Source: a bacterium (lineage in GTDB: Bacteria > Actinomycetota > Acidimicrobiia > Acidimicrobiales > CATQHL01). Taken from it: 64,000 bases of DNA. The stretch covers positions 10,451 to 74,450 of the forward strand of contig JAPOVS010000021.1 of NCBI GenBank assembly GCA_026708055.1. Reading direction: 5' to 3'. The notes under the pieces are model-generated. The model was not told the DNA's origin. It saw only the letters and a list, made by a program, of their open reading frames with translations, and made no database searches. Positions 1-15,044 of this stretch are shown piece by piece (the first letter of the stretch is position 1; each line of letters opens with the position of its first letter). Both the position numbers and the translations under genes were made by a program.

Positions 1-1186
1 CGGTCAGAACTCCCGACATCCAGCGACGCATGTCGTCGAGAATCGGACCGCCATGGGTATCCAGCAACTCGTCAGGAAGCAATGCGATCGCTGCGGCCGT
101 CGCTGCTTCATCAGGGCGGCGACCGAGGAATCGACTGTATGCATCGAGTTCGTCGGTGCACTCCTCGGCCAAGTCCTTCAGTTTGTTGATTGGACCGATG
201 ACCGATGTCACGTCGGGAATCTCGTCGAGAGTGCACGACACCGTGCCACCGAAACCACCCGATGCTGGCCGGTAGGAAAACTCGAGATTCTTCGCGGGCC
301 GCCGCACCTTGATGCCGTCGCCGAATCGAGTCCGATATCGCAATAGGAACAGCTGATCAAATTGAGGCTGACAGCGCATTGCCGCGGTCCGCAAAGGAAC
401 GTATGGGTGGTGGCGTAGGTAGCTGAGTGCCCACTCTGCGGGGATCCGCTGCCCCTCACCCACAAGCCTTCCGATGCCGATTTGAAGCGCGAGGGACACC
501 TCCCAACGGTTCTCCTCGGGGTCCCACGCGACCGGCTCGAGGTCGGCGTTGACAAGACACAATGCTTCAATGAAGTCGACCAATTCGCCTGCGTAACCTG
601 CGAACGAGTAGTTGTCGCCGTAGATCGCGAGGAGGCGTCTGATCTCGGCGACGAGAACCGGGACTTCGGGGTTGTCCAAGTCTGATCCCAGGTCGACCAG
701 AAGTCGTCGCTCGAGGCCGTACAAGAACAGGAACACGTAACCGATGTAGGCGGACTCGTCCCGGCGACCGTTGATCAGCCAGATCAGGTATGCAGCACGG
801 GCGCGCTTGTCCAGACGATCGTACGACGGCCAGTAGCCCATCGTGCTCCCTGCCCAGTCGGGACGCTTCCAGTTAACGGGAAACCGGGGATCGATCAGGC
901 ACGGCTCGACTTGGGATTGGTCCGCCGATCGAGCACCACTGCCCACATATACCATCCCACCCGCAACTGGGCGGCCACCGACGATGATGCTCCCGCCGGC
1001 CGGAACCCACGTCGCCAAGCCCCTCGTCGGGCGCACAGGCGACGATGCGGGTCGTGTCGTCGCCTGTTGCCGAGAGGGGGAGTCGCTGTGCGCGGTCCGC
1101 GCCGAGGCCGGAACCGACGGAGTCGAGAGCGGTGGCCGGCCGTGATGTGAAGCCCGTCTTCTGCCGAATAGCTTGCCCAGGCCCAT
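1..1186 (-). CDS. TerB N-terminal domain-containing protein (TerB-N/TerB-C type); 3' end lies beyond the left edge
   Basis: Hand-translated open minus-strand frame, absent from the ORF track because it has no stop in the window. ATG at 1186 (alt 1222), upstream stop at 1241-1243. Contains WVPAGGSIIVGGRPVAGGMVYVGSG..EPCLIDPRFPV..MGYWPSYDRLDKRARAAYLIWL..YIGYVFLFLYGLERRLL, which I associate with TerB_N. Confidence 0.65.
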   Translation of the reverse strand, partial: MGLGKLFGRRRASHHGRPPLSTPSVPASARTAHSDSPSRQQATTRPASSPVRPTRGLATWVPAGGSIIVGGRPVAGGMVYVGSGARSADQSQVEPCLIDPRFPVNWKRPDWAGSTMGYWPSYDRLDKRARAAYLIWLINGRRDESAYIGYVFLFLYGLERRLLVDLGSDLDNPEVPVLVAEIRRLLAIYGDNYSFAGYAGELVDFIEALCLVNADLEPVAWDPEENRWEVSLALQIGIGRLVGEGQRIPAEWALSYLRHHPYVPLRTAAMRCQPQFDQLFLLRYRTRFGDGIKVRRPAKNLEFSYRPASGGFGGTVSCTLDEIPDVTSVIGPINKLKDLAEECTDELDAYSRFLGRRPDEAATAAAIALLPDELLDTHGGPILDDMRRWMSGVLT

Positions 1187-1377
1187 CAGACTCCTATCTC
1201 TCACGCCCTTCCACGGCGCCATCGCCGCCACGCGGTCGCCTCAGCAGCTCGGATTCGGCAGCGTGTCTTCTTCGTCGGACCGAATACTTCTAACACGCCC
1301 AAGACTTCGTCGCGTAACCTCCTGCGATTCCGGTCTGTCCGAGAGGACCCCAGACCTATTCTTCAGAACGTCGCGCC

Positions 1378-2268
1378 TCATGGTGCACGCCGCGCCGAGT
1401 TAGCACCCGTCGACTTCAGGTGCGCGCGACCAGGAAGCTGCGGAGGTGGTCGGTCAGGGTCTCTGGCTGGTCGATGGGGATGGTCGATGGGGATGAGGGT
1501 GTAGCTGTCGTCGATCCAGGCGAGTTGGGTGTTGCCGAAGTGGTCGGCGAGTCGTTGGGCGTGGGTGGGGGGCATGAGCTTGTCTTCTCGTGCCCAGATG
1601 ATGAGGACCGGGCCGGCGAAGCTGCGCTGCTGGTCGGCCCAGGAGAGCAACTGCTGGGGTTCGGGGACGGTGCGGAGGTACTTGGCGAGGTCGCGGCGGA
1701 CCTTGGGGTTGTGGCGCAGCGGACCGATCCAGGTCCCGAACAGGTCCTCGGGAACCCGCTGTTCGGACAGGGCGCCGAAGACCACGGGGAGATGGCGGAT
1801 CCAGCGCCGGCGCAACAACTGGGCGACCAGGAAGGTGCCCCCGGGCAGCGCCGCGGTGGCGCACAGCAGCCGGCCCGGCGCCCCGGGCGGGTAGTTGTCG
1901 AAGGCCTCACAGGAGACCAGGACCAAGTTGGCGACACGATCCGAGCCGCCGGGGCTGATGAGGAGCGGCGCGCCGCCCCAGTCGTTGCAGACCAGCGTGA
2001 CCCGCTGCAGGTCCAGTGCGGCGAGGAACTCGGCGAGGAGGGTGGCGATCGCCGGCAGGGACAGGTCGGCGCCGTCGGGCATCGGCGCGCTGTGCGCGCC
2101 GAACGGCAACTCCGGGACGACGCAGCGGTAGCGATCCCCCAGGCCCTCGACGACGGCGTCCCACAGGGAGCCACCCATCAACACCCCGTGCAGCAACACC
2201 ACCACCGGCCCATTGCCGCCGCTGTCGGAATGCATGAGGCCGGCGGATGTGGGGCCCTGAAGCTGCAT
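1378..2268 (-). CDS. alpha/beta hydrolase (Asp-nucleophile NDWGG type); 3' end frameshifted by a 13-bp tandem duplication
   Basis: ATG at 2268 (MQLQGPT..) inside track ORF 1378..2457. Motifs VVVLLHG and LVCNDWGG. The expected C-terminus IPIDQPETLTDHLRSFLVART* (stop 1416) is in another frame, seen in ORF 1416..2174. Confidence 0.85.
   Translation of the reverse strand: MQLQGPTSAGLMHSDSGGNGPVVVLLHGVLMGGSLWDAVVEGLGDRYRCVVPELPFGAHSAPMPDGADLSLPAIATLLAEFLAALDLQRVTLVCNDWGGAPLLISPGGSDRVANLVLVSCEAFDNYPPGAPGRLLCATAALPGGTFLVAQLLRRRWIRHLPVVFGALSEQRVPEDLFGTWIGPLRHNPKVRRDLAKYLRTVPEPQQLLSWADQQRSFAGPVLIIWAREDKLMPPTHAQRLADHFGNTQLAWIDDSYTLIPIDHPHRPARDPDRPPPQLPGRAHLKSTGANSARRAP
1468..1493. repeat. perfect 13-bp tandem duplication (tggtcgatgggga x2) inside the hydrolase gene
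   Basis: Read directly. On the coding strand it is ATCCCCATCGACC x2. Removing one copy restores ..DDSYTLIPIDQPETLTDHLRSFLVART*. Confidence 0.95.
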
Positions 2269-2399
2269 CCCCAGACCTCCTCGCCGGTGAGGGTCAAATC
2301 GGCAGATCGTCGACGCCGAGTCGCGGGGATCACGGTACCGGGGTCCGCCTCTGGCAGGTGCAGGTGTCCACGTCGACCTGGAATCGGGTGCAAAGGCCC

Positions 2400-2433
2400 A
2401 AAAAGAATGGGACCCCGTGCGTTCCGGGGTCCC
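2400..2433 (-). terminator. intrinsic terminator downstream of the DUF3800 gene
   Basis: Perfect 9-bp stem GGGACCCCG / CGGGGTCCC with a 7-nt loop. On the minus strand it is followed by ATTCTTTTTGGG. Confidence 0.8.
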
Positions 2434-2538
2434 GTTGCCGCGGTATTTCGGCTGCATTCGGCTGTCGCCTACTAGCCGAACCGACAGGCATCCCCCACGA
2501 TAGGCGCTTGGGCCTATGGCCGCAACGATCGCGCCCGC

Positions 2539-3249
2539 TCAGAACAGGACGATCTCATTGGTGTAGCGGCGGCCGCTGTGGGTGGTCGCGTTGGTGTTGT
2601 TCGGCAGCGTGCGCACTGCGGCCAGCCTGGAGCCGAGGACGCCGAGGCGGCGATCGCCCTCGACTACCCGTCGCCTGATGCCCGCTACCAAGTCGGCGAC
2701 TTGGATCGCCTGAGTCGTGAGAGAGCTTCCGTAGTAGACGCTGGGGTGCAGCGGCAGCCGCCGCGAGAGCACGAAGCTCGCCACGCACTAGCTGACGTGC
2801 GCGTCGAGTCCGTAGCCGGACCAGTCCGAGACGATGAGGCCTGTCTCGCCGTGGTGGGCACACTCAACTGCGAAGTGCTCCACGAGGGCTTGCATCTGTA
2901 GCGGCGCCGTCGTCTCCAGAGTCATGGGGTGATGCATCCGCTTCTTGTTGATGCTCACCGTGTAGACGGTGCAACTCAGCAGTCGGAGGATTTGCAGCGT
3001 CTCATCCACAAGATCGCGATTCTTGCGACGCTTCCAGGGGTTCGGCCTGATCGTCTCTGTCGCTTTGACCTCCCACTTTGTCGGATCGCCACGCGACGCG
3101 AAGAAGCGCGCCTTGACACCCGCGAACTTGCGGCTCAGCGCCGGGGCGTTCGCCGCCGGGATCGAGAAGCCGCCGATCACGACCGCGCCCGAGCTGTCAC
3201 GAAGGGCGGGCTTGCCCGAATCGTCTAGGAACAGCACACGGGCACTCAT
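2539..3249 (-). pseudogene. DUF3800 family protein interrupted by one in-frame TAG
   Basis: Track ORFs 2788..3249 and 2539..2784 share one frame, separated only by TAG (2788-2790) plus one codon. N-terminus VLFLDDSGKP and downstream QVADLVAG fit DUF3800. ATG at 3249 has no clear SD. Confidence 0.7.
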
Positions 3250-3487
3250 GAGCGCTGCACGTTACGGGCTCACGGTGACAGTGCCAGCGCTGGGTGTGCC
3301 CGGATCTCGGACCACTGCGCGCGGGCCTGGCGGTGGGGTTCGGTGGCTGCTGCTTCGTCCAGGACATCGAGGCGCATCCTGTCCGAAGCCGCCCGCTCGG
3401 CGATCACGTCGGGAAGGTCCTACCAGGCATCTCGACGACGGCCGTAACGGCGGGTCCCCGCACTCGGCTAGACCGATGCCTGACTCT

Positions 3488-4996
3488 TCAGGTGACTCGC
3501 GCAAGGGTTGGCTCGAGGTCAGGATCGGCCGATCGGAGCTTTCGGCGCCAGCAGGATCGCTTCGAGGGAGTCGACGCGTCTGGGGGCAGCGTCAGGGCGA
3601 AGGCTCGCCGAACGGAGAAGTCGCCAAGGTCGCACGCGTATTCGACGGCGCGTGCAGAGCGATGGGCCTCGGAGGAGCCCCAAGCCTTGGCCGCCCAAGC
3701 CCGAAGCGGGGCATGGCGTCGGAGACTGCTGTCGGTAGCGAGATCCAGCAGGCGGTTGCCATGCTCTTTGCCCAACCGAAGTTGGCTGGCAACTCGACAG
3801 AGGTGGAGCTCGCCTGCGGCGGATCGCGCCGTAGGGCTCGCCGTCGCCTGGTCAACGAGCCAGTCTTGATCAAGCTCCTGACGATTGTGGGGATGGCCAA
3901 CGACTGCCGAGAGGTAGTGACCCACGCTGAGCGGTATTTCTTGTAGCAACTGCGGTTGCTCATAGAGGATCGGTAGCGCGAGCGGACTCTGCGCAGATCT
4001 GAGCGAACCCAAATGGAACTTGACGAGGGTCAAGTCCGGTGTGTCTCGCTGGAGTTCGTCCCGAAGTTCGCCGGCAGCTCTCTGCGGTGGTCGGAACCCC
4101 GCGCCGGGTGAAGTCAGATAGGCGATCTGCCCGTGCTGGATGATGTGCTCGGCAGCTGCGCTGCCCTTCGGATGAACCTCCACCTTCGAGGCGTTGACTT
4201 CAAGTCCGAGATCTGACGCCAACGCGGCGTAGACCTCGAGAACCTCCGGCCACTCCGTCTCGGCTCCGAGAAACATCCAACTGTCGTCCGTGTACCGGAT
4301 GTGGCCTCGGACCCGGCAGGAGATCGCCGTGTCAAGCTCCATCAGGACGATGTTCCCTAGCAACCCGGACGCCTCGGGCCCGACGGGCAGACCACCTGGC
4401 GCGCCCATGGGCTCGAGGTCACGCAATAGATCACCGATGAGGGTGACGGCGCCCTGCGGCGAACCCGCCTGGCGCAGAGCATCCATGACGACCTCGGGTT
4501 CAACCGAGGGGTAGTAGTTCCTCAGGTCGGCAACGGCCATCGCATTGCAACCCGCCGCTGCGAGTAGCTCCCGTGCGCGCTCGCGCCGCAGCCCGAAAGC
4601 CACTCGCACGTCCTGCACGGACCACGCCGGCGGATCGTCCGCAAGCCGATAGCTGAACACGTCGGGGCCAAGCGCCGCTTCGACCGCGAGCGCAACACGT
4701 CCGACAACGATCCGGAGATGGAGATCGTCGTACGGGTTGAGCCACGCCATCTTGCGGACCTCGCCCTTGCCGCTCTTCGGCAGTGGGAACGTGTGGGCGA
4801 CGGACGGGCAGCGCCCCTCCTGTGAGCGGCTGATCAGGCGCTGACGCACCAACTCGGGAGCCGCAATGAAGTCGGCCCATCCGTCAACGTCCGGCAGATC
4901 CCGCCTGCCGACCCAGGGAGCGCCCGCCCGCAAGTTGACTGAGACTTCGTCCAACGTCGGCGGGTGGCCGCCGTCGTGGGGACATAGGGAGCCCAC
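3488..4996 (-). CDS. stand-alone reverse transcriptase (UG/Abi/DRT-like) with ~200-aa helical C-terminal extension
   Basis: RT motifs KMAWLNPYDD, ADLRNYYPSV (A), GLPVGPEASGLLGN (B), YTDD (C) and LEVNASK (D/E). GTG start preceded by AAAGGAGGAATC. No maturase/En domain and no retron VTG motif noticed. Confidence 0.9.
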   Translation of the reverse strand: MGSLCPHDGGHPPTLDEVSVNLRAGAPWVGRRDLPDVDGWADFIAAPELVRQRLISRSQEGRCPSVAHTFPLPKSGKGEVRKMAWLNPYDDLHLRIVVGRVALAVEAALGPDVFSYRLADDPPAWSVQDVRVAFGLRRERARELLAAAGCNAMAVADLRNYYPSVEPEVVMDALRQAGSPQGAVTLIGDLLRDLEPMGAPGGLPVGPEASGLLGNIVLMELDTAISCRVRGHIRYTDDSWMFLGAETEWPEVLEVYAALASDLGLEVNASKVEVHPKGSAAAEHIIQHGQIAYLTSPGAGFRPPQRAAGELRDELQRDTPDLTLVKFHLGSLRSAQSPLALPILYEQPQLLQEIPLSVGHYLSAVVGHPHNRQELDQDWLVDQATASPTARSAAGELHLCRVASQLRLGKEHGNRLLDLATDSSLRRHAPLRAWAAKAWGSSEAHRSARAVEYACDLGDFSVRRAFALTLPPDASTPSKRSCWRRKLRSADPDLEPTLARVT

Positions 4997-5021
4997 GATT
5001 CCTCCTTTGCGCCAGCGAGCG

Positions 5022-6140
5022 CTAGAAGAGCCGGTCGGCTAGGACGGTGCCGGGGCGTTCGGCTTCGAGACCGAGTTTCCACATGATGTATGTGGCGGTC
5101 GCCCGCCTCGTGGGCATGCGTGTGACTACTTCGTTGTCTGCCATGCAGATGCCTTGCCAATCGGGGTTCGTCTTGCGCCAGTCGATGTCGGCGAGTCCCT
5201 TGAGGGAATCGGTCCAGTGCCCGTTGGCGTGGTCATGCGCGGCGCGGGCTGCGGCGCCGGCGAAGCCGAGAGCCCACAGTGACAGCGCGTAGGACGACAC
5301 GTATACCTGGCGTGCCTCCTGCGCCTTCATGTCACCGTCGAGGATGTGGCACCAGGGTGCGACAAGATCGGTGAGGCGGGTCCAGTAGTCGACCGCCTGG
5401 GTTGTCAGCTCGCTTACTTGCTCTGCGGGGAGCTTCTCGGATGGGTTACCGAGGAGTTGAAGGTTGGCCTGTTGCAGACCCGAGAGGGTGGCGAACTTCG
5501 GCGAGCGCACCGACAGCGACACGCGCTCTTTGTCGATGCGGTCCTCGAACAGTGGGACTCCCTCGAGGCACGCCATGGTGATGCGGTTGATCGGCAGTCG
5601 GTGGTCGAAGAGGATGTCGAGAGACTTCGACGTCTTGCGCACGGTGCGGTTGAGGTCAGAGAAGATCTGCTGGCTGCGCTCCAGGCCGCCGTCGGGCAGC
5701 ACGACCACCGAGATGGTGTCCTCCGCGAGCTTCGGGTCCTGTCGCAGCGCCTCGGAGATGCCCGCCACGCGGTGCTGGCCGTCGTTGATCACATACTTCG
5801 CCTCCAACGGCAGGACCAGGTTGCCGATGTCGGCTCCCTCCTCGACGGGACGGAAATCGACCTCGTCGGAGTCAACCGAGACGGTGATCGAGGAGAAGAT
5901 GTAGTCATCGTGGTCCAGCACGTACTCGGCGATCTCGGGGACCCGCTTGGCGATCAGCGTTCTCTGGGAACGGTTCTCTGGCGTCAGCTCGAGCATCTTG
6001 TCGGGGTCGAAGGTGAAGAGCTTCGTGACTGCCCCGAACGGGAGCGTCGCCGTGTAGTAGTTGGTCGTGCCCATCCGGCCTCGGGTCGCGGGGACCTGAA
6101 AGGTGGGCCGGAGGCGGCTGCTAAAGCTTGCTGATGTCAT
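5022..6140 (-). CDS. DGQHR domain-containing protein (DndB-like, ParB/Srx fold)
   Basis: Literal motif YVINDGQHRVAG, plus QRTLIAKRVPEIAEYV and FSDLNRTVRK as in DndB-like proteins. SD GAGGAGA lies upstream of ATG 6140. Stop is 25 bp before the RT start. Confidence 0.88.
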   Translation of the reverse strand: MTSASFSSRLRPTFQVPATRGRMGTTNYYTATLPFGAVTKLFTFDPDKMLELTPENRSQRTLIAKRVPEIAEYVLDHDDYIFSSITVSVDSDEVDFRPVEEGADIGNLVLPLEAKYVINDGQHRVAGISEALRQDPKLAEDTISVVVLPDGGLERSQQIFSDLNRTVRKTSKSLDILFDHRLPINRITMACLEGVPLFEDRIDKERVSLSVRSPKFATLSGLQQANLQLLGNPSEKLPAEQVSELTTQAVDYWTRLTDLVAPWCHILDGDMKAQEARQVYVSSYALSLWALGFAGAAARAAHDHANGHWTDSLKGLADIDWRKTNPDWQGICMADNEVVTRMPTRRATATYIMWKLGLEAERPGTVLADRLF

Positions 6141-6202
6141 CGGATCTCCTCTGAGCTTGGTCAGTCAACGGCCGAGCAGCGATTTCGCCACCCGGCACCG
6201 GT

Positions 6203-6231
6203 ACTCTACCAGATACGTCGCACTATTGCAA
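6203..6231 (-). promoter_or_regulatory. sigma-A type promoter of the DGQHR-RT unit
   Basis: Minus strand reads TTGCAA-N17-TGG-TAGAGT (-35, 17-nt spacer, extended -10) in a locally AT-rich stretch. Predicted 5' UTR is about 55 nt. Confidence 0.6.
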
Positions 6232-6262
6232 CTAGTACGTCTCAAAGAGTCGCAAGTACGTC
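6214..6262 (-). promoter_or_regulatory. three phased direct repeats GACGTA(C/T) (plus-strand TACGTC at 6214, 6236, 6257)
   Basis: Hexamers spaced 22 and 21 bp. One sits in the promoter spacer and two lie just upstream of -35. Operator-like. Confidence 0.5.
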
Positions 6263-6461
6263 GACTTGGATGAGCAATTGGGACATCAGACTGCTCCTGC
6301 CTCTCCGCATGAGAGATTCATGATCGGACTGGATCACTGCACTCCGATGCAGCACCCGGCGTTACCTCGGACGGCAGAGGAGGACCTCACACCATCACCG
6401 GCACCAAATCGGAGCGACTTCGGCGCATTGCTCAGCGGATCTCAAGTGCGCTAGAGGGCAT

Positions 6462-6539
6462 CAGGGAGAGATCGGCGCCGTCGGGCATCGGCGTGGTGTG
6501 CGCGCCGAACGGCAGTTCCGGGACGACGCAGCGGTAGCG
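6462..6539 (-). pseudogene. 78-bp remnant of the alpha/beta-hydrolase gene (fragment A1)
   Basis: Aligns by eye to 2060-2133 of the full copy (..RYRCVVPELPFGAHTTPMPDGADLSL..). Its variant bases match fragment A3. Confidence 0.85.
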
Positions 6540-6576
6540 GCATCTCTGCGTGCCGCGACCGTGAGGACGACGTTCG

Positions 6577-6813
6577 TCAGGGACGGTCGGCTTCGAGGGT
6601 GCGGGTGACGGCTCGGCGGATCCATGACGACACCGAGCGGTCGTCGGCCTCGGCGGCGGCTCTGACCTGCTCGAGGACATCGGGCGGGAACCGCACCGGG
6701 ACCGGATCGGTCATCGGCTCCTTGCGTCGCCGGGGCGGGCCCTGGGGAATCTGGTTCTCGGACCTGCCGTAGAACTCGTGCTCCTCGGCGGGGGTCATCG
6801 TGGAGTCGTTCAT
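6577..6813 (-). CDS. ribbon-helix-helix (CopG/Arc-type) antitoxin-like protein
   Basis: ATG 6813 preceded by GGAGGA. C-terminal VPVRFPPDVLEQVRAAAEADDRSVSSWIRRAV is a typical RHH strand-helix-helix pattern. ATGA overlap with the upstream gene. Confidence 0.7.
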   Translation of the reverse strand: MNDSTMTPAEEHEFYGRSENQIPQGPPRRRKEPMTDPVPVRFPPDVLEQVRAAAEADDRSVSSWIRRAVTRTLEADRP

Positions 6814-7110
6814 CGGTCCTCCAAGTAGCGGGTGGCGAGGTGCGCTGTGGCGACGTAGCAACCGATCGGCCGACACTTCGTCGGGTCGCCGGAATCCGGG
6901 GGTGCCAGGGGACGACGAGAACAGTGCCGCTGACTTGCGCAACCATCAGCCAGTGGGCCGGCGGTTTGGCCGGATAGAACAGCGGGTCATTGCGCCACAC
7001 GTCGTGGATGTCGTCGATTCCGAGCGCTTCATGCTTGAACAGGTGCGGTGCCTGCCTGGTGATCTCGAACGGGTCGTCCTCATCGAGTAGGTCTATGTCG
7101 AACAGGCCAT
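6810..7110 (-). pseudogene. toxin-like small gene upstream of the RHH gene, frameshifted (family not named)
   Basis: ..DPFEITRQAPHLFKHEALGIDDIHDVWRNDPLFYPAKPPAHWLMVAQVSGTVLVVP continues in another frame as LAPPDSGDPTKCRPIGCYVATAHLATRYLEDR*. The break is at a G4 run (6908-6911). The start is also unclear: ATG 7110 hits a stop after 5 codons. Confidence 0.5.
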
Positions 7111-7130
7111 CCTCCCACGAAAGTGTAATA

Positions 7131-7151
7131 CAGACGAATACGAATTGTCTG
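7131..7151 (-). promoter_or_regulatory. palindromic operator-like site upstream of the decayed TA pair
   Basis: CAGAC-GAATACGAATT-GTCTG with an internal ACGAAT x2 tandem, just upstream of the SD/start region. Confidence 0.35.
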
Positions 7152-7283
7152 CGGCCGGCGAACTCGGGTCCTGCTCATCTCGGCAAGACGATCGACGAAC
7201 CCGCGGAACCGCGGGACTCCTGAGCGCCTCGGAAACCGATCACCGCAACTGCCGGCACCATGGCGAGGCCCCTCGCCGAAACC

Positions 7284-7343
7284 ATAAGCCCCGCCATTTC
7301 CGGCTAGCCAGAAAGGCGGGGAGGAATGTCGACATCTTACCGG
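7284..7343 (-). repeat. 60-bp hairpin repeat, copy 1
   Basis: ataagCCCCGCCatttccggctagccagaaaGGCGGGGaggaatgtcgacatcttaccgg. Near-identical to 8591-8650. Confidence 0.9.
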
Positions 7344-7457
7344 CGTTAGCCGGCGCGCACATGGCTACTGAGGTCGGCTGCCGAGTCGGCAGGCAGCGGA
7401 ACAGCCGTACGCCGCAGCGCCCGGAGCCGCGGCGGGAGTGAGGATAGGGAGGCAGAC

Positions 7458-7739
7458 ATGGCCAGGGGCAGGACCATCCACTTCCTCATCACGTATGACC
7501 GCTCGAATAGGCAACTCCTCAATCTGGAGCGGCTCCACAACGGCAAGAAGGCCGTCGACACCTACGGCGAGCGGGAGCGCGAGTACGCGGACCGGCCGCA
7601 GATCGAGGTGGTGTTGCTCGGCGCCGGTTCCGAGGTTGCCATCCGCGTGACTCGTCCCGTCTACTCCCGGACGGAACCGTCGTCGACGGAGCGGATCGCC
7701 GAACTACCGGGCATCTCCGCCGAGGCCGCCGTCCGCTGA
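7458..7739 (+). CDS. small hypothetical protein
   Basis: 93-aa ORF. GGGAGG lies 6 nt before the ATG. Composition looks protein-like (..ITYDRSNRQLLNLERL..PQIEVVLLGAGSE..). Family not recognised. Confidence 0.5.
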   Translation: MARGRTIHFLITYDRSNRQLLNLERLHNGKKAVDTYGEREREYADRPQIEVVLLGAGSEVAIRVTRPVYSRTEPSSTERIAELPGISAEAAVR

Positions 7740-7767
7740 GACGCCTCCGCGGCATCTCCATCGCCCC

Positions 7768-8216
7768 GCTGGGCAGCGCGGCGATGGGGCACAGCAGCCG
7801 GCCCGGCGCCCCGGGCGGGTAGTTGTCGAAGGCCTCACAGGAGACCAGGACCAAGTAGGCGACACGATCGGACCCGCCGGGGCTGATGACGAGCTGCGCG
7901 CCGCCCCAGTCGTTGCAGACCAGCGTGTCGTTGCCGACCAGCGTGACCTGGTGCAGGTCCAGTTCGGTGAGGAACTCGGCGAGGATGGTGACGATCGCGG
8001 CAGGGACAGGTCGGTGCCGTCGGGCATCGGCGCGCTGTTCGCGCCGAACGGCAGCTCCGGGACGACGCAGCGGTAGCGATTCCGCAGGCCCTCGGTGACG
8101 GTGTCCCACAGGGAGCCACCCATCAACGCCCCGTGCAGCAACACCACCACCGGCCCGTCGCCGCCGGAGTAGGAATACATGAGGCCGGCTGACGTGGGGC
8201 CCTGAAGCTGCATCAC
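7768..8216 (-). pseudogene. alpha/beta-hydrolase 5' fragment A2 (N-terminal ~145 codons; frameshift plus 18-bp tandem duplication)
   Basis: MMQLQGPTSAGLMYSYSGGDGPVVVLLHG.. aligns to 1840-2268. One C is missing relative to the full copy near 7997. Tandem duplication gtcgttgc(a/c)gaccagcgt lies at 7909-7944. Confidence 0.85.
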
Positions 8217-8261
8217 GATTTCCTGGCCGTCACGAGTCAGCGCCGAACTCCACGGTGGCGA

Positions 8262-8567
8262 TCAGGACGCGAGATAGTTCGTGTCGTCCCGCACATATCC
8301 GAATCGTCGTTCGTCCAGTTGGTGGTTCCAGAGGCGGTGAGTCGGGACGCGCAGCGGCCACTGCCGAGAGGCGGACCCCACCCACGTGGCCGTCTCGACT
8401 CGCCTACCGGCGTCGAGGGCTACCTCGATTGCCGGAACCAGGTCGGTATCGGCCGAGACGATCACGGCGACGTCGTAGCGGTCGTCCCGGGCGCCGAGAG
8501 CGATGTCGATGGCCATGAGCACGTGGTAGGCGTTCTGGTAGTCAAGGAAGACCGCGATGCGCGTCAC
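8262..8567 (-). CDS. NYN domain protein, apparently internally deleted
   Basis: RIAVFLDYQNAYHV is joined directly to AIDIALGARDDRYDVAVIVSADTDLVPAIE. The usual ~90 aa between these NYN motifs are absent. Confidence 0.55.
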   Translation of the reverse strand: MTRIAVFLDYQNAYHVLMAIDIALGARDDRYDVAVIVSADTDLVPAIEVALDAGRRVETATWVGSASRQWPLRVPTHRLWNHQLDERRFGYVRDDTNYLAS

Positions 8568-8590
8568 CAGTCCATCACCTCACGAAAAAG

Positions 8591-8650
8591 ATAAGCCCCG
8601 CCATTCCCGGCTAGCCGGAAAGGCGGGGAGGAATGTCAGCATCTTACCGG
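8591..8650 (-). repeat. 60-bp hairpin repeat, copy 2 (terminator-like on the minus strand)
   Basis: Same element as 7284-7343. The inner palindrome ccggctagccgg is perfect. On the minus strand the stem is followed by CTTATCTTTTTCG. Confidence 0.9.
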
Positions 8651-8727
8651 TTTTTCGTGGACGCGCAAGTAGCTGCTGGGTGCGCCGTCTCATCAGGATT
8701 GCGACCGCGGACGCCTGGAGTCGTCGC

Positions 8728-9164
8728 GACGAGGACCGGGCCGGCGAAGCTGCGCTGCTGGTCGGCCCAGGCGAGCAGCTGGTGAGGTTTGGGGACGGTG
8801 CGTAGGTAGGTCGCGGCGGACCTTGGCGTTGTGGCGCAGCGGACCGATCCAGCTCCCGAACAGGTCCTCGGGAACCCGCTGTTTGAACAGGGCGCCGAAG
8901 AGGGGAGGGCTCGTTGCAGACCAGCGTGACCTCATGTGGGTCCAGTTCGGTGAGGAACTCGGCGATGAGGGTGGCGATCGCCGGCAGGGACAGGTCGGCA
9001 CCATCGGGCATCGGCGTGGTGTGCGCGCCGAACGGCAACTCCGGGACGACGCAGCGGCAGCGGTCCCGCAGGCCCTCGATGACGGTGTTCCACAGGGAGT
9101 CACCCATCAACACCCCGTGCAGCAACACCACCACCGGCCCATCGCCGCCGGTGTCGGAGTACAT
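8728..9164 (-). pseudogene. alpha/beta-hydrolase fragment A3 (internal ~200-bp deletion plus small indels)
   Basis: Aligns to ~1598-1775 and ~1982-2268 of the full copy. Homology continues upstream of the start codon to about 9225. Confidence 0.85.
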
Positions 9165-9228
9165 GAGGCTGGCGGACGTGGGCCCGCGAGCTGCATCCGC
9201 GGACCTCCTTGCCGGTGGGCGTCGTGCC

Positions 9229-10341
9229 CTATTGGGGATGCTGTTCGCGTAGCCAGTCCCGGGCGGCGTGGTGGGCGAGAGTGATGCGCCCCCAGCCTGC
9301 GGGAAGGATCATGCCGGCGCGTAGTAGTCGCTGCCGGTAGACGCCGGCGTAGCTGGTGGTGGCGCCGAGGCGGTCGGCGATGTCGGTGAGCTTCGACTCA
9401 GCGTCGTCCTGAGCCATCGCCAGTAGGAATCGTCGGTCCACGTCCGAGAGCGTTCTCCAGGTGGGGGCAAAGACCATCCGGCCAATACGCCGCTGAGCCT
9501 CGGCGATTCCTGCTGTGACGTGCTCGTCGGTGATGACCGGGGAGTTGATGTCCGCTTGCCAACTATGGAACCCGACGAGCTGGACCATGAATGCGTATCC
9601 AGAGGTTGCGGCGGCGGCGCGTTCGAGAGCTGTGGAGTCGATGGAGCGACCGTGCTGGCTGATCGGTTCGGCGATGGCGCGCCGGGTCGCCTGCGGGTTC
9701 AGTCGGTCGATGTCGTAGCGAGAGCAGCGTTGCAGGAACGTGATGGCGTCGTCGGAGAGCAGGGTGTCCTCGATCTGGGGAAGGGCGGCGCCGATGAACG
9801 CGACCGGCCGCTCCTCGCGGCGCGACACATGCTGGAGGACCGAGCCGAACTCGCGGATCTCGTCGACGTCGCCACTCTGCATCTCGTCGACGGTGATCAA
9901 CAAGCCCGTCTTTTGCTCAGCGAGAGCGTCGCCGAGATCGGACAGGGCTCCCCGGAGGTCGTACTCGGCTTGGGGTGTTGGGACGGTCGCGAGTCCGACG
10001 CCGAACCCTGCGGCGGTCGCGCTGCTGAGGCGGCGCTTGGGTTCCGCCGGCCCGATTTCTTCGAGGAGATCGGATGCCGCGCGGGTGAGACGATCGGAGA
10101 GTCCCACCGATGAGGCGCTGTCGGACCGCGCGAGCCATCCCCGGCTCCGGGCGAGGTCCTCGACGGCATTGAGCATCACCGTCTTGCCGGCGCCCCGCAC
10201 GCCGATGAACAGGGCTGTGTAGTCCGGATGGGTCGGACCGGCGGCGAGGGCGTCGCCCACGCTGTCGAGAATGGCGTCGCGCCCGGCAAGCACCGGTGGC
10301 GAGGTTCCGAAGCTCGGCGAGAAGGGGTTGCGGACGGCCAA
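9229..10341 (-). CDS. AAA-type ATP-binding protein with C-terminal winged-helix DNA-binding region
   Basis: Walker A GVRGAGKT, Walker B LLITVDEM, C-terminal SDVDRRFLLAMAQ..LTDIADRLG..YRQRLL. Start placed at TTG 10341 after GAGGAGAA, because the longer track ORF runs into an AT-rich promoter-like region. Confidence 0.7.
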   Translation of the reverse strand: MAVRNPFSPSFGTSPPVLAGRDAILDSVGDALAAGPTHPDYTALFIGVRGAGKTVMLNAVEDLARSRGWLARSDSASSVGLSDRLTRAASDLLEEIGPAEPKRRLSSATAAGFGVGLATVPTPQAEYDLRGALSDLGDALAEQKTGLLITVDEMQSGDVDEIREFGSVLQHVSRREERPVAFIGAALPQIEDTLLSDDAITFLQRCSRYDIDRLNPQATRRAIAEPISQHGRSIDSTALERAAAATSGYAFMVQLVGFHSWQADINSPVITDEHVTAGIAEAQRRIGRMVFAPTWRTLSDVDRRFLLAMAQDDAESKLTDIADRLGATTSYAGVYRQRLLRAGMILPAGWGRITLAHHAARDWLREQHPQ

Positions 10342-10391
10342 TCGGTTCTCCTCGCTGCTTGCGGCGCAACACGAGTCTAGCCGTTTGTGGG

Positions 10392-10436
10392 CTTTATGAT
10401 CTTTGTTTCCTTTATTAGTTTTGAAATCTTTAGTGT
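10392..10436. repeat. five phased 9-bp units (CTTTnnnnn) in the AT-rich region upstream of the ATPase gene
   Basis: CTTT/TTTT starts at 10392, 10401, 10410, 10419 and 10428, an exact 9-bp period. Confidence 0.7.
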
Positions 10437-10658
10437 TCGGGCCTCTACTGGGGGTTATATCGGATGGTGCCGACGCGGGCGGTGAGAGGATGTCGCCGCC
10501 GCCGTGGGTTTGCCAGTGTTCGACGTTCTCAGGGTCAGGCTTGCGGGTGAGGATCGCTCGGAGCGCTTCCTCCGGCGTCATGCCGTCAGGTGGGGCGATG
10601 GGCTCGTCTCGTGGTGGCGTCTAGGGTGCGGGATCCCCCTGACGAGAGGTGGACGCAG

Positions 10659-11057
10659 ATGCGGATCACATTGACCAACGTCATCGTCGACGACCAGGCC
10701 AAGGCCGTCGCCTTCTACACCGAGGTCCTCGGATTCCAGAAGTATCACGACGTACCCGTCGGGGAGTATTCGTGGCTCACCGTGGTCTCCCCGGAGCAGC
10801 CTGACGGGCCGGAACTGCTGCTCGAGCCCGCAGCGCACCCGGCCGCCAGGGCATCCCGCGACGCTCTCACCGCCGACGGGGTCCCATCTGCACAGTTCAC
10901 CGTTGACGACGTTCATGCCGAGCACGCGCGGCTGCTTGCTGCCGGCGTGGAGTTCGCTCAGCCGCCCACCGATGTCGGCACCGTTGTGATGGCGGTCTTC
11001 GATGACACCTGCGGGAACCTGATCCAGATCGTGACCCCGGCTCCAAGACCTGCATAG
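10659..11057 (+). CDS. VOC family (glyoxalase/bleomycin-resistance fold) protein
   Basis: MRITLTNVIVDDQAKAVAFYTEVLGF..TVVMAVFDDTCGNLIQI. ATG 10659 lies after GAGAGGTGGA. Confidence 0.8.
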   Translation: MRITLTNVIVDDQAKAVAFYTEVLGFQKYHDVPVGEYSWLTVVSPEQPDGPELLLEPAAHPAARASRDALTADGVPSAQFTVDDVHAEHARLLAAGVEFAQPPTDVGTVVMAVFDDTCGNLIQIVTPAPRPA

Positions 11058-11092
11058 CGGCGCGGCCGGAGTTCACCGTGGTGGGACGTCGC

Positions 11093-11308
11093 TCAATCGT
11101 CCGTCCACGGGTCGAGGAGATCGACGCCCACATCGGTGAAGTCCCCGGTGTTGCGCGTTGCCACCGCCATGCCGCGGGATCGGGCTATGGCTGCAATCTG
11201 GGCATCCGCCAGGGCGATCGGGTGACCGGCGGCACGGCGATCTGCGGCGATCGCCGCATACGCACGAGCCGCATCGCTGTCGAACGGCAGGACGCGACCG
11301 GCGAATCC
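11093..11308 (-). pseudogene. C-terminal remnant of a PIN-domain VapC toxin
   Basis: Hand translation gives VLPFDSDAARAYAAIAADRRAAGHPIALADAQIAAIARSRGMAVATRNTGDFTDVGVDLLDPW. The frame is closed by TGA at 11309-11311. No N-terminal half and no start codon. Confidence 0.6.
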
Positions 11309-11359
11309 TCACGAATGAGGGTCCCTCTGTCGGCCTCGATGGGCCAGACTTGAGGTCTC

Positions 11360-12091
11360 ATGAGTGCCGAGCCCGTCACGGATCGCATCTATCTTCGGGA
11401 CGCCGATTGCCGGACGTTCGATGCCGTTGTCGTGGCGGTGGAGGACGGCGGGCGGGTGGCGCTGGATGCGACGGCGTTCTATGCCACCGGGGGCGGACAG
11501 CCGCATGACACCGGGACGCTGGCCTGGGACGGGGGGTCGGCGGCGGTGACCGACGTGCGGGGGCATGGGGCGGTGGTGTGGCACACGCTGGAGGGGGACG
11601 TGCCGGCGACCGGCGCTTCAGTGCGGGGGACTCTGGACTGGGAGCGGCGCTATGCGCTGATGCGCACGCACACCGCGCTGCACATCCTGTGCGGGGTGAT
11701 CTACAACACCTGGGGGGCGGCGGTGACCGGGGGGAACATGGAGCCGCTGCGGGCGCGGATGGACTTCGAGTTCGGGCCGCTGCCGGAGGGGTTCGGCGCC
11801 GAGGTGGCCGAGCTGGTGAACGCCGAGATCGCCGCCGACCGCCCGGTGGAAGTGTCGTTCTGGCCGCGGGCCGCCGCGCTGTCCGACGCGGACCTGATCC
11901 GCACCAAGGTGAACCTGATCCCCGAGTCGGTGACCGAGATCCGGGTGGTGGACATCGTGGGCCTGGACCGCCAGGCCGACGGCGGCACCCACGTGGCCTC
12001 CACCGCCGAGGTGGGCCGCTTCGAGGTCACCAGGACCGAGTCCAAGGGCAAGGCCAACAAGCGCCTGCGCATCGCCCTCAGCGACGCCTGA
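11360..12091 (+). CDS. AlaX-type alanyl-tRNA editing protein
   Basis: FYATGGGQPHDTG, RTHTALHIL and DRQADGGTHV match the Ala/Thr-tRNA synthetase editing-domain His/Cys motifs. Confidence 0.8.
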   Translation: MSAEPVTDRIYLRDADCRTFDAVVVAVEDGGRVALDATAFYATGGGQPHDTGTLAWDGGSAAVTDVRGHGAVVWHTLEGDVPATGASVRGTLDWERRYALMRTHTALHILCGVIYNTWGAAVTGGNMEPLRARMDFEFGPLPEGFGAEVAELVNAEIAADRPVEVSFWPRAAALSDADLIRTKVNLIPESVTEIRVVDIVGLDRQADGGTHVASTAEVGRFEVTRTESKGKANKRLRIALSDA

Positions 12092-12148
12092 GGCGAGCGC
12101 TGAGCCCGATCCTGGCGGCCTCCCCGGCCTCCGGTTCCGAACCACGAA

Positions 12149-12240
12149 CTGCTCGGATTACGAACGCAAAGGTGCTCGGATTCCGAAAGAAATAGTGCTC
12201 GAATTGCGAAAGTTCAGTGCTAGGGTTGTGCGGTGATGGA
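12149..12240 (+). repeat. about four degenerate tandem 22-23-bp repeats ((C/G)TGCTCGGATTxCGAA..)
   Basis: Units start at 12149, 12172, 12195 and 12217. Each contains a near-palindrome (TCGGATTCCGA, TCGAATTGCGA). The array abuts or overlaps the start of the next gene. Confidence 0.75.
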
Positions 12241-13492
12241 TCGTGTCGTGCGTCGTGTGCTGGGGCTGGTGCTGGCTCGGCTTGCTGAGGAGCCGGTGGT
12301 TGCGCTGCAGGGGCCGCGCACGGTCGGTAAGTCGACGCTGCTGGGTGAGGTCGCCGCCCGGCACGGCGTCGCGGTAATCGACCTCGATGAGCCGGCGGTG
12401 CGTGACGCGGTGAGGGCGGATCCGGGAACCTTCACAGCAGGTGCGCCGCCCGTGTGCATCGACGAGTTCCAGAAGGCTCCCGTGGTGCTCGACGCCATCA
12501 AGGCCGAACTCAACAGGCGCCTGGGGCCCGGCCGCTTCGTCCTCTGTGGCTCGACCCGATTCGACGCGCTGCCCCGTGCCGCGCAGGCCCTCACGGGACG
12601 TATCCACGTCATCGATCTGCTGCCGTTCTCCCAGGGAGAGATGGACGGTCGCGTGGAGGGCTTCCTTGCCGTGGCGATGACCACGCCCGACCTGCTGGTG
12701 AGTGCGCGTCGCTCGGCGACGAGCCGCGACGATTACATCGAACGGATCTGCCGCGGCGGGCTGCCGCTGGCCGTCGCCCGGCAGGCCGAGTCCCGCAATC
12801 GCTGGATCGATGACTACGTACGCGTCTCTCTGGCCCGCGACGTGACGGAGTTGGCGAGAATCCGCCAGGGGGCGCTGCTGCCGGCGCTGCTGCGGCGCCT
12901 CGCCGCGCAGACGGGGCAGGTCCTCAACATGGCCACTGCCGGCAGGGGTGCGGGTCTCGACCCCCGCACTGCCGAGACTTACACCAAGCTGCTGGAGGAT
13001 CTGTTCCTCGTGCGGCGTCTGGGAGCGTGGGGGCGCACTCTGCGGGCGCGCACCGCCGCGACCCCGAAGATTCACGTTCTCGACAGCGGTGTGGCGGCGC
13101 GGCTGCTGGGTCTGAGCCCGGCGAGGTTGGGGCGGCTCGATCCGGCTGCGCTGAGCGAGTTCGGGCACCTGCTGGAGACCTTCGTCGTGGGCGAACTCCT
13201 CAAGCAGGCGTCCTGGACCGGCGACATCGCCGGCGTCGGCCATTGGCGGACCCACGACGGCCACGAGGTCGATCTCGTCATCGAGCACCACGACGGCTCG
13301 GTCACCGCGTTCGAGGTCAAGTCCGCCGCACGGGTCACCACGCGGGACCTCCGGGGCCTGCGAACCCTCCGGGATGCCCTAGGGGAGGGATTCAACAGCG
13401 GGATCGTCCTGCACACCGGCGAACTCACCTACCGACTCGACGACCGGATCATCGTCGCGCCCATCGACCTGCTGTGGAGCGAGCACCGCTGA
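12233..13492 (+). CDS. ATP-binding protein (AAA_14 + DUF4143 family)
   Basis: LQGPRTVGKSTL, CIDEFQKAP and the C-terminal HWRTHDGHEVDLVIE..AFEVK restriction-endonuclease-like end typical of DUF4143 proteins. Confidence 0.8.
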   Translation: MMDRVVRRVLGLVLARLAEEPVVALQGPRTVGKSTLLGEVAARHGVAVIDLDEPAVRDAVRADPGTFTAGAPPVCIDEFQKAPVVLDAIKAELNRRLGPGRFVLCGSTRFDALPRAAQALTGRIHVIDLLPFSQGEMDGRVEGFLAVAMTTPDLLVSARRSATSRDDYIERICRGGLPLAVARQAESRNRWIDDYVRVSLARDVTELARIRQGALLPALLRRLAAQTGQVLNMATAGRGAGLDPRTAETYTKLLEDLFLVRRLGAWGRTLRARTAATPKIHVLDSGVAARLLGLSPARLGRLDPAALSEFGHLLETFVVGELLKQASWTGDIAGVGHWRTHDGHEVDLVIEHHDGSVTAFEVKSAARVTTRDLRGLRTLRDALGEGFNSGIVLHTGELTYRLDDRIIVAPIDLLWSEHR

Positions 13493-13493
13493 C

Positions 13494-13907
13494 GTGATCG
13501 CAACGATCGTTTCGGTCGGCTACCAGGGGCGCAGCGTCGACGAGTTGATCGACGTGCTCCGGGCCGGCGCGGTGAAGCTTCTCGTCGATGTCCGTCTGAA
13601 CCCGATCTCGCGCAAGGCGGGATTCTCCAAGAACCCGCTGAGCCAGGCCCTCGCCGAAGCCGGCATCCGGTACCGCCACGAGCGGTCGCTCGGGAACCCC
13701 CGGGACAACCGTGACCCGTTCGACCGGGAGCGGTGCGAGGCCTATCTAGTGGCGAACGGCTCCGAGGTGCTTGCCGAGATCATGGAGTTGGCCAGGTCCA
13801 CCCGGATCGCCCTGCTGTGCTACGAGCGCCAACACCGCGACTGCCACCGCTCGTGCATCCTGGATGTCGCCGCGCAGCAGCACGCCGTCCGTGTGCTGAA
13901 GTCGTGA
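13494..13907 (+). CDS. DUF488 family protein
   Basis: SVGYQGRSVDELIDVL..LLVDVRLNPISRKAGFSK..ALLCYERQHRDCHR. GTG start lies 1 nt after the upstream stop. Confidence 0.75.
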   Translation: MIATIVSVGYQGRSVDELIDVLRAGAVKLLVDVRLNPISRKAGFSKNPLSQALAEAGIRYRHERSLGNPRDNRDPFDRERCEAYLVANGSEVLAEIMELARSTRIALLCYERQHRDCHRSCILDVAAQQHAVRVLKS

Positions 13908-13979
13908 CCAGCCCAGGAGCGGCGGCAGCCGGGCAGCCGAGGCTCGGCGGCTGGGAGCGGCCGTGTACCTCCGCGCCGA

Positions 13980-14747
13980 CTACACGCAGCCCAAGGCGTC
14001 GCGCACGGCGGTGATCCCGTCGAGCACATAGGTGGCAGAGCCGCCGTCGCCGATGTCGCTGCCCGGGACGTAGTCGACGTACAGCGTCCCCCCCGATGCT
14101 GCCTGGATTACGCGTGCGATGAAGTTGCTATCGGGGTCCGCGAACAGGGTGCTCGCCGATTCCTCGTTGCTCCACCAAGTGTAGAGATCCGTCTCTGGTG
14201 ATTCCCATTCCGCCAGCCGGTAGGCGAGGCTAGACGAGTCGTTGTCGTAGTCGTTGAAGATCAGAAGGCTCGTACCGAAGAACACCTCCAAGGTGGTGCC
14301 TGTGCAGCGAATGACCAGGAAGTGCGGGCTCTCCCACTCATAGCCGGAGTCTGACTCTGCGGCGAGGGCGTAGCCCTCGAAGTTGCCTGCCGTGTTCGCG
14401 CCATCGAAGAATTCCCACCCGCCTGTCCCCGCTGTTCGAGCTGTGGTGTTGGTCGTGGTGTCGCCGCCAGCGGGCGAGGAGGAGCTCTGGACGCGGACGG
14501 GCCCGGTGTAGTACCACTCCCCGACCGGGGCGTCGGCAGCCAGGTGGCGGGGGCGAGGGAGGCGTTGGCCAGCCCAAGAGCCGTCCGGTTGCTGGTACTG
14601 CCACCCCAACTCGACACGACCATCCGCGAGCGGCCGAGCCATGATGCGCACGGTCCTGGAGTTGGGTTCTTGGCCGCCCACCGCCGTGGCTGGCAGGAGA
14701 ACAGCGAGCGCCGTCAGGGCGACGAATGCGGGGGCGAGGCGTTTCAC
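13980..14747 (-). CDS. secreted hypothetical protein
   Basis: Signal-peptide-like VKRLAPAFVALTALAVLLPATAVG. GTG 14747 lies after AAAGGA. The N-terminal module RIMARPLADGRVELGWQ..RLPRPRHL is shared with the 19452 gene. Confidence 0.65.
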   Translation of the reverse strand: MKRLAPAFVALTALAVLLPATAVGGQEPNSRTVRIMARPLADGRVELGWQYQQPDGSWAGQRLPRPRHLAADAPVGEWYYTGPVRVQSSSSPAGGDTTTNTTARTAGTGGWEFFDGANTAGNFEGYALAAESDSGYEWESPHFLVIRCTGTTLEVFFGTSLLIFNDYDNDSSSLAYRLAEWESPETDLYTWWSNEESASTLFADPDSNFIARVIQAASGGTLYVDYVPGSDIGDGGSATYVLDGITAVRDALGCV

Positions 14748-15043: not shown

Positions 15044-15044
15044 G

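Follow-up and report, generated by a model that had tools for sequence, protein, structure and literature searches.

How does a bacterial island come to hold one gene four times over, in same-oriented pieces with defence genes between them, when no integrase is found beside it? The question is raised by the window analysed here, a stretch of 64,000 nucleotides (nt) from an Acidimicrobiales bacterium (GenBank contig JAPOVS010000021.1, positions 10,451 to 74,450), in which a gene for an alpha/beta-hydrolase, here called H, recurs between positions 1416 and 9223. A preliminary description, made from the sequence, had explained the recurrence by serial site-specific integration at a single core inside the gene. 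Comparison with related genomes leads us to another answer. The region forms the central part of an island of defence and toxin–antitoxin (TA) genes, about 17 kb long and of low guanine-plus-cytosine (GC) content, and H is a resident gene that has turned into a family of direct repeats inside it. At a probability of roughly 0.55, we favour the reading that defence and TA cassettes were gained and lost by homology-driven events (Campbell-type insertion or unequal crossing-over), accompanied by gene conversion and decay. The earlier idea that blocks inserted in one gene left partial copies behind is retained in general, but its integrase-and-core mechanism is wrong in the specifics. The integrase-free defence hotspot with a reiterated anchor gene is a real, recurrent and unusual architecture.

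All four H copies lie on the minus strand, one near-full and three fragmentary, as had been noted from the sequence. The full copy (1416-2340) extends from gene nt -72, negative numbers lying upstream of the gene, to the original stop codon TGA (1416-1418) and matches Abhydrolase_1 (E 9e-19). Even in this 'near-full' copy a 13-bp tandem duplication (CATCCCCATCGAC twice, 1470-1495, minus strand) frameshifts the last ~20 codons, and the frameshifted frame continues past the stop to 1378, giving the called open reading frame (ORF) 1378-2268. In the alignment eight other full copies are without this duplication; the independent scaffold L080 has it too (L numbers denote the related loci compared, the scan having taken in a single genome for each species together with metagenome contigs). 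H genes of relatives normally encode 279-280 aa. Of A1 (6462-6539) a 78-nt remnant survives, nt 136-213 of the gene, with 92% identity to the full copy. In A2 (7766-8229), which comprises nt -17 to 431, 18 bp are tandemly duplicated and 1 nt is deleted. A3 (8728-9223) consists of nt -26 to 287 (8911-9223) and nt 488-669 (8728-8901), separated by a deletion of nt 288-487 (~200 bp); it has also suffered an 8-nt and a 1-nt deletion and a further one from nt 670 to about +60 past the stop codon. The 18-bp duplication in A2, the ~200-bp deletion in A3 and the frameshifts previously read from the letters thus all appear in the alignment. Among themselves the window copies are 88-91% identical, and the full copy shares 93% nt identity with its orthologue in L001 (10001-10824). 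Their division of the DNA into three cargo blocks, as first delineated, is borne out: DUF3800, reverse transcriptase (RT) and DndB-like (DGQHR) genes in block 1, a ribbon-helix-helix (RHH) gene and a small ORF in block 2, and a truncated NYN gene in block 3; no intact toxin gene was found in block 2, to which one had been ascribed. At the 5' side of A2 the alignment continues unbroken into the NYN gene, as it does in L097 (7746-8512), where H is intact, and the 5' junction of A3 to an AAA_16 gene is also found in L101. With its broken NYN gene, broken RHH partner, DUF3800 stop codon and frameshifted H, the window array is probably a decaying relic.

That a metagenome assembler merely concatenated strain variants of one gene has a negligible probability. 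The window is indeed metagenomic, and copies 88-93% identical fall in the range of strain or species variants. Yet an independent metagenome scaffold from the European Nucleotide Archive (ROBB21-1, scaffold_119) equals window 1-16140 except for one mismatch, a Logan contig from another read set covers window 3347-6515 at 100% identity and so crosses the A1/DndB junction, the chromosome-level complete metagenome-assembled genomes (MAGs) OZ220687.1 and OZ242194.1 hold comparable H arrays, and another species (L003) is collinear with the window arrangement. Because scaffold and second-read-set contig agree and complete MAG chromosomes hold comparable arrays, the arrangement is not an assembly artefact.

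The architecture recurs well beyond the window. In the same Acidimicrobiia clade, 14 non-redundant contigs each have two to seven H pieces within 20 kb, and all of the ~58 pieces are in direct orientation, with none inverted. The cargo among them consists of defence or TA genes, namely DarTG with UvrD, Shedu SduA_C, a HEPN_Swt1/DUF499/DUF1156 group, a PLD/MZB/helicase/methylase set, HipA, Fic, HepT/MNT, RelA_SpoT, AAA_13 and a NucS-like nuclease. A recurrent layout is an H piece from nt 1 to 144, 433, 667 or 786, then cargo, then an H piece starting at nt -72, -26 or -17. On gene coordinates, the two pieces that enclose a block thus have a stretch in common, variable in length and often long. 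In L086, H(1..433) is followed by ORF93 and a 173-aa gene, H(-72..786), DarG-DarT-UvrD and H(-72..8); in L003, DarTG-UvrD lies between H(..144) and H(-72..105), and in L087 SduA_C-DarTG-UvrD lies between H(..667) and H(-68..end). The junction of UvrD-DarTG with H at nt -72 is common to five genomes that differ in what lies on its other side. These variable-length overlapping segments around cargo are what leads us to a single homologous crossover or unequal crossing-over.

Every copy in the window has a counterpart elsewhere, differently truncated. The H piece corresponding to A3 lies in L101 (AAA_16, then H(-26..442)), and A2 corresponds to the intact H after the NYN gene of L097. A1 is matched by a remnant upstream of DndB in L106 (7003-7080) and by a piece before the RT in L003 (12221-12433, nt 162-375), and the full copy by the H(..144) that follows a terminator in L003. 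The window order A2, D6 (a terminator-like repeat described below), RHH, A1, DndB/RT, terminator and full H is collinear with L003 10000-14851, which reads full H, D6, RHH, H fragment, RT, terminator and H(..144). In L003 it is the equivalent of A2 that is intact and that of the full copy that is truncated (at nt 144), opposite to the state of the window. This collinearity with opposite intact copies means that an array of at least four copies was inherited, pre-dates the split of the lineages and has decayed differentially, so that the copy left intact differs between genomes. The preliminary description had held vertically inherited paralogues with no empty site against its own reading. Inheritance as paralogues is seen from A2 to the full copy, but equivalents of empty sites exist as well. 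In L097 a lone intact H, between NYN and DndB, takes the place of the A2, block 2 and A1 of the window; in L101 a single H piece, with the 5' junction of A3, stands in for A3, block 3 and A2. Such sites are equally expected under homologous recombination. The L101 piece is cut at nt 442 (A2 ends at nt 431), and an ORF93 homologue lies within ~250 nt. A segment-wise identity comparison for an A3/A2 hybrid in this piece gave no signal, the lineage being too divergent (81-92%).

Integration at one core does not account for these pieces. The model, in which integrase elements inserted serially at a 38-nt attachment (att) core in H, each supplied a replacement 5' end and later lost their integrases, is in keeping with the way co-oriented partial copies part the cargo blocks, with the foreign composition of the cargo and with the recurrent boundary at nt -72 to -95 at which cargo modules are often joined to the 5' region of H; a like layout is known for the tRNA-targeting tycheposons (10.1101/2020.12.28.424599). 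The 38-nt stretch is, as claimed, common to all four window copies, its pattern being found exactly four times in the window with 0 expected by chance. The reason is merely that A1 is the smallest remnant and that the stretch encodes the conserved RYRCVVPELPFGA motif. The alignment of junctions shows no core that coincides with the fragment ends. The 3' ends of H pieces lie at more than 30 positions within nt 8-792 (nt 8, 20, 33, 46, 65, 71, 105, 144, 159, 186, 194, 205, 213, 244, 253, 279, 313, 324, 375, 426-453, 524, 574, 621, 667-669 and 786 among them), and the 5' starts range from nt -105 to 777. Since several 5' fragments stop short of the core (nt 136-173) and an allele that removes it (nt 82-203 deleted) is found in four genomes, its presence in the four window copies does not imply an att site. 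Nor are all fragments 5' ends placed upstream of the intact gene: in L003, L014, L086, L088 and L097 intact copies have 5', internal and 3' pieces to either side, fragments lie downstream of intact copies (L003, L014, L088), and the copy intact in L003 is the very one predicted to be displaced.

Recombinases are missing from the record as well. The absence of an integrase that had been noted for the window holds for the Pfam annotation of called genes, which covered window 1 to ~40 kb. In related islands, about a dozen of them, the screen covered ~20 kb around each array. Neither tyrosine nor serine recombinases were found, whether in the Pfam annotation of L080, L084-L090 and L096 or among 20 further array ORFs in L003, L004, L014, L017 and L045. 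The only hits of the kind were IS transposases with DDE and rve domains (IS630, IS481, IS3, ISL3 and DDE_Tnp_1). No single mobile-element family leaves its hallmark in the islands; they hold assorted insertion sequences (IS), some cutting H copies (IS3 in L014, DDE_Tnp_1 in L017). We therefore regard serial integration as very unlikely, and agree with its original account that the events are old.

Sequence downstream of H also speaks against displaced 5' ends. The D6 repeat has exactly two occurrences in the window, both on the minus strand and both folding as hairpins. D6a (7271-7343) is terminator-like, with a 14-bp stem and a U-rich tail, and matches L003 10970-11027, just downstream of the intact H there. 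D6b (8578-8720) combines the repeat (8578-8650) with ~70 nt of native H-downstream sequence; window 8591-8695 is 92% identical to L003 10911-11016, which is +71 to +176 past the stop of the intact L003 H. In L003, D6 and the ~100 nt before it directly follow that stop codon, which points to D6 as the native downstream terminator of H. A3 carries H-downstream sequence right after its break at nt 669, so that it was a whole gene which later lost the segment from nt 670 to about +60. After A2 come ORF93, D6 and the RHH module, and after the intact H of L003 come D6 and the same RHH module; in L097, moreover, the NYN-H junction of A2 adjoins an intact H. As both retain the downstream terminator of H, A3 and A2 were once whole gene copies.

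Several observations indicate that H copies have recombined with each other. Two full copies on one contig (the L001 and L002 loci) are 94.8% identical over the coding region and contain a 320-nt identical tract, a length reached in 0 of 5000 permutations of an alignment that also took in the divergent upstream region. The full copy of the window shares a 143-nt identical run with L002, against 93% identity overall, and is mosaic: its nt 316-451 are 100% identical to L002_full and L001_16, its nt 1-91 at most 90% identical to anything. Between L004 and L090, which are 96-97% identical, the same fragment differs only in its 5' part, with a switch at nt ~203. Dead alleles have moved between contexts. 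The nt 82-203 deletion occurs in five places in the four genomes, twice within L014, and the nt 288-487 deletion of A3 in three genomes and differing contexts, with the same junction in L106 and L090. Whole units of cargo and H are also repeated inside single genomes: the L017/L076 contig has RelA_SpoT-H three times, and in L003 a 5'-end remnant of a 567-aa gene twice lies upstream of H pieces. The H(~431)/ORF93 junctions of A2 and L086 are identical by descent. The cargo, for its part, appears to be acquired DNA exchanged between lineages. Its GC content is foreign, the NucS-like gene reaches 95% identity where the AlaX flank of the same lineages stays at 87-90%, and DarTG types do not track lineages. 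A neighbour-joining tree of all copies (nt 46-185) is poorly resolved, with loose clustering by lineage only.

The mechanism that we propose starts from a circle carrying cargo and a segment of H, which would insert into the chromosomal H by one homologous crossover (Campbell-type); unequal crossing-over between H copies would yield the same product. A reverse crossover would remove the block, leave a single hybrid H and regenerate the circle. Gene conversion would homogenise the copies patchwise, and deletions, short tandem duplications, frameshifts and IS insertions would destroy them, while dead alleles could still be copied. In this scheme the circles, the reliance on host RecA, the passage from cell to cell and the sequence of events are inferred, while the repeats and their junctions, the positional counterparts, the conversion tract, the lack of integrases in the annotated islands and the nature of the cargo are direct observations.

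A number of points weigh against this reading. The mechanism is deduced from end products alone, and neither a circular junction nor a within-population presence/absence variant is among the data. The window copies are 88-91% identical, and RecA-dependent recombination between them would therefore be inefficient today. The history is not uniquely reconstructable, A1 (nt 136-213) requiring at least one extra deletion after a Campbell-type event. Moreover, the breakpoints are not wholly scattered. Seven 3' ends fall at nt 426-453, where ~1.4 are expected, with at least four different joined sequences, and a second group lies at nt 204-213, again with different sequences joined (cluster breakpoints: window 7766-7771 and 6462, L014 7598, L076 12174, L086 9082, L097 13560 and 15346, L101 1052). 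No motif was identified at either cluster. The clusters could point to a sequence-dependent process and may be a hotspot of recombination or breakage, and a recombinase may also act in trans from elsewhere in the genome, the screen having covered ~20 kb per array.

The homology-driven reading has to be set against explanations in which H homology plays no such part. The most credible of these, though still doubtful, is that an old tandem or segmental duplication left passive paralogues, which were passed on vertically and decayed while unrelated illegitimate events inserted and deleted cargo. The differently truncated positional counterparts of all four window copies are in its favour, scattered breakpoints fit random deletions, and the copies are old (88-91% identical). 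Ratios of nonsynonymous to synonymous substitution rates (dN/dS) among intact H copies of the array clade (window, L001-L004, L076, L085, L088, L090) are 0.35-0.8, so that constraint on the H protein appears weak in the clade, as passive decay would have it. Left unexplained, however, are the co-orientation of all ~58 pieces, the same cargo-H(-72) junction in five genomes with differing partners, the dead alleles in several unrelated contexts and twice in one genome, and the 320-nt conversion tract. Silent-cassette diversification, as of pilE by pilS, offers another way to read the mosaic full copies and the high dN/dS. The truncated copies would then be a reservoir for an expressed hydrolase and the cargo incidental. 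This is more improbable still than serial integration: the fragments retain the 5' end and upstream region instead of lacking them, they bear frameshifts and large deletions, the 'expressed' copy of the window is itself frameshifted, and in other phyla H is a single-copy gene in an ordinary metabolic context. A joint codon-position and dN/dS analysis did not separate fragments imported as functional genes from those decayed in place, full copies too having values of 0.35-0.8; GC content did set cargo (63-66%) apart from the core genome (72%).

Some further candidates were dropped. Retro-copying by the RT of the island should leave 5'-truncated complementary DNA copies, and the pieces are mostly 3'-truncated. 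An integron is not supported, as no integrase was found and D6, the one hairpin that recurs (two copies in the window), is the terminator of H. A conserved dyad motif at nt -80 to -50 (CGGTACCGTGAYCC..CACGGCGTCGAC) was weighed as a possible att-like site. Every occurrence lies upstream of an H copy; the window has a single one, and A2 and A3 are without it. A promoter or operator is the likelier role. The island is not linked to a tRNA gene either, the sole one in the window sitting at 63329. Finally, the idea of H as the conserved module of a mobile element was given up. The gene is single-copy in a more distant member of the clade and, among metabolic genes, in another phylum (homologue P0010). 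No H was found in IMG/VR viral contigs, plasmids gave only homologues below 50% identity, and nothing indicates that known mobile elements carry H.

As a tentative extension of homology-driven exchange, the H repeats may serve as portable homology or landing pads, defence and TA cassettes between overlapping H segments excising as circles and re-inserting into any H copy through host homologous recombination only; the breakpoint clusters at nt ~430 and ~205 might then mark a recombination-stimulating site. If this is true, a sponge-associated Acidimicrobiia clade has an integrase-free form of cassette exchange, and the gene fragments are a readable record of how a hotspot is built without mobile-element hallmarks.

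Likenesses to known systems are partial. Phage 21 and e14 at icd exemplify tandem accretion, in which an island grows at one target gene and leaves co-oriented partial copies. The same growth is known from the tycheposons of Prochlorococcus, where older elements are pushed inward and decay (10.1101/2020.12.28.424599). Tyrosine or serine recombinases are encoded by those elements, and all their repeats end at a single short att core, whereas the ends of H repeats spread over 840 nt, overlaps reach hundreds of nt, no recombinase was found and some repeats were whole genes with their own terminator. In Campbell-type integration, a circle with homology inserts by one crossover, direct repeats come to surround the cargo, and recombination between the repeats releases the circle. 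Amplifiable units and the translocatable units of IS26 follow the same logic of insertion and release that we propose for H; the repeat here is an ordinary host gene instead of an IS or plasmid fragment, and its copies are now ~90% identical. Gene fragments amass through homologous recombination also in orphan modules of Rhs and contact-dependent growth inhibition (CDI) systems and in effector-immunity arrays of type VI secretion systems, where recombination in a conserved segment imports modules and displaced fragments accumulate nearby. The orphans there are 3' tips without a 5' end, tied to the main gene as toxin or immunity; H fragments mostly retain the 5' end, and their cargo (RT/DndB, DarTG, Shedu, TA pairs) has no evident link to the hydrolase.

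A close parallel is also offered by the core defence hotspots (cDHS) of Pseudomonas aeruginosa, fixed loci bounded by conserved flank genes, with variable, defence-rich and lower-GC content and no obvious mobile-element hallmark (PMC10250203). Their marker genes are single-copy boundaries, in contrast to the one marker gene reiterated two to seven times inside the island here. The authors of that study suggest transfer via homologous recombination of the conserved flanks and call hotspot assembly unknown; how the many defence islands at fixed hotspots free of integrases and transposases are assembled and exchanged is thus a stated open question (PMC10250203). The Acidimicrobiia clade preserves scars that bear on it, namely a flank gene reiterated up to seven times, overlapping segments, shared dead alleles, conversion tracts and empty-site equivalents, and these make the homologous-recombination route testable on existing long-read sponge metagenomes. 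They also call for caution in annotation. Partial copies of a target gene are usually taken as proof of site-specific integration, a reading that fails here.

Across the clade, the islands are variable and defence-rich, and include Shango SngA, RT with DndB, DarTG with UvrD, Shedu and TA-type genes. The window has a right flank of AlaX, DUF488, AAA_14/DUF4143, Pyridox_ox_2 and adenosine deaminase in common with L001, L004, L017, L086 and L090; the left flank lies past the ends of window and contig. The window as a whole is high-GC, with 66.7% in positions 1-17000 and 72.4% in the remainder. The low-GC island reaches ~17 kb, where housekeeping genes start. By part, cargo blocks have 63-66%, H copies ~70% and the core genome 72% GC; with this composition H looks native and the cargo looks acquired. 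No Rfam family was detected in window 1-12000 at a permissive threshold. The closest named relatives are Acidimicrobiia or Acidimicrobiales MAGs, part of them named Candidatus Poriferisodalis or Poriferisocius, and from these names the host, an uncultured bacterium of the Acidimicrobiia, is presumably a sponge symbiont.

The left neighbour of the full copy, lying immediately downstream of H, is the 5' part of a SngA gene with a TerB domain, of the Shango defence system (2-1231, minus strand; PADLOC SngA E 9e-45), which extends beyond the window start. Past that start, L080 15300-21119 shows a TerB_N/TerB/TerB_C gene, a BrxC/BrxD-like ATPase and a DEAD helicase with an RNase_T domain. Between block 1 and the full copy lies a 75-nt terminator element (2401-2475, minus strand; hairpin 2409-2433 followed by a T-run, fold -32.7 kcal/mol). 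In a terminator scan and comparison it proved 99% identical to L017 9576-9650, while the adjoining DNA of both genomes is only ~84% identical; further copies are present in L003, L004, L090 and L106.

All genes of block 1 are on the minus strand. The DUF3800 gene (2539-3249; Pfam E 5e-4) is interrupted by an in-frame stop at 2788-2790; ORFs 2788-3249 and 2539-2784 share one frame and are called as genes of 153 aa and 81 aa in L080 and L081. The RT (3488-4996) is of the unknown group/abortive infection (UG/Abi) type (nearest profiles UG23 and Drt8: PADLOC RT_UG23 9e-27, Drt8 1e-25; Pfam RVT_1 1e-6), with homologues in L003 (12720-14455, 88%) and L097 (10738-12270, 85%). Directly upstream lies the DndB-like gene (5022-6140; Pfam DndB 4e-91, PADLOC DndB 2e-91), and the pair recurs at L097 9399-12258 (DndB 9399-10517) with 85-90% nt identity. 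In the window the DUF3800 gene comes after the pair. A survey of UG/Abi RTs gives NUDIX and SLATT as the partners of UG23 and never mentions DGQHR or DUF3800 (PMC9226505). To judge from this recurrent adjacency, DndB-like protein and UG/Abi RT may form an undescribed defence gene pair. L081 (sample SHAF22-1) is 100% identical to window 2453-6385 save for 36 nt (4503-4538) missing inside the RT, which is called there as two ORFs, a population variant of the reverse transcriptase.

In block 2, the Arc/RHH antitoxin-like gene (6577-6813, minus strand; Pfam Arc 2e-5) has lost its partner just upstream, a gene of 159 aa in L003 that is broken in the window (about 6820-7297); window 6574-7342 is 87% identical to L003 10958-11718. 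RHH homologues also lie 0.1-1.7 kb downstream of a single H, convergent with it, in about eight more distant genomes. ORF93 (7458-7739, plus strand, 93 aa) has homologues in L086 (9108-9389, by junction alignment), L001, L017 and L076. In other genomes it follows a RelA_SpoT-domain gene, as do the 93-aa genes of L090 (7116-8142), and it therefore looks like the remnant of a toxSAS-like pair. The NYN remnant of block 3 (8262-8567, minus strand, 101 aa) matches Pfam NYN at profile positions 74-124 of 145 (4e-7) and has an internal deletion of ~318 nt relative to the 207-aa gene of L097 (7383-8006).

The H protein itself is ~70% identical across MAGs of Acidimicrobiia, Acidobacteriota, Gammaproteobacteria and Chloroflexota. 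The family (window 1416-2268, homologues P0001-P0120) retains the Asp nucleophile motif CNDWGG; where haloalkane dehalogenases have their catalytic His (GLHFLQEDQP), its members from all phyla sampled show Thr (DDS[YR]TLIPIDQP). The cross-phylum identity together with Thr in place of His suggests a horizontally spread and possibly non-canonical enzyme.

To the right of the array, and still within the low-GC island, stands the AAA_16 ATPase gene (9229-10581, minus strand), 84% identical to L017 1008-2204. With it, window 9229-17000 holds a glyoxalase gene, a free-standing AlaX-like editing domain gene, two AAA_14/DUF4143 ATPase genes, DUF488 and PIN. In L086 the AlaX gene is partly duplicated.

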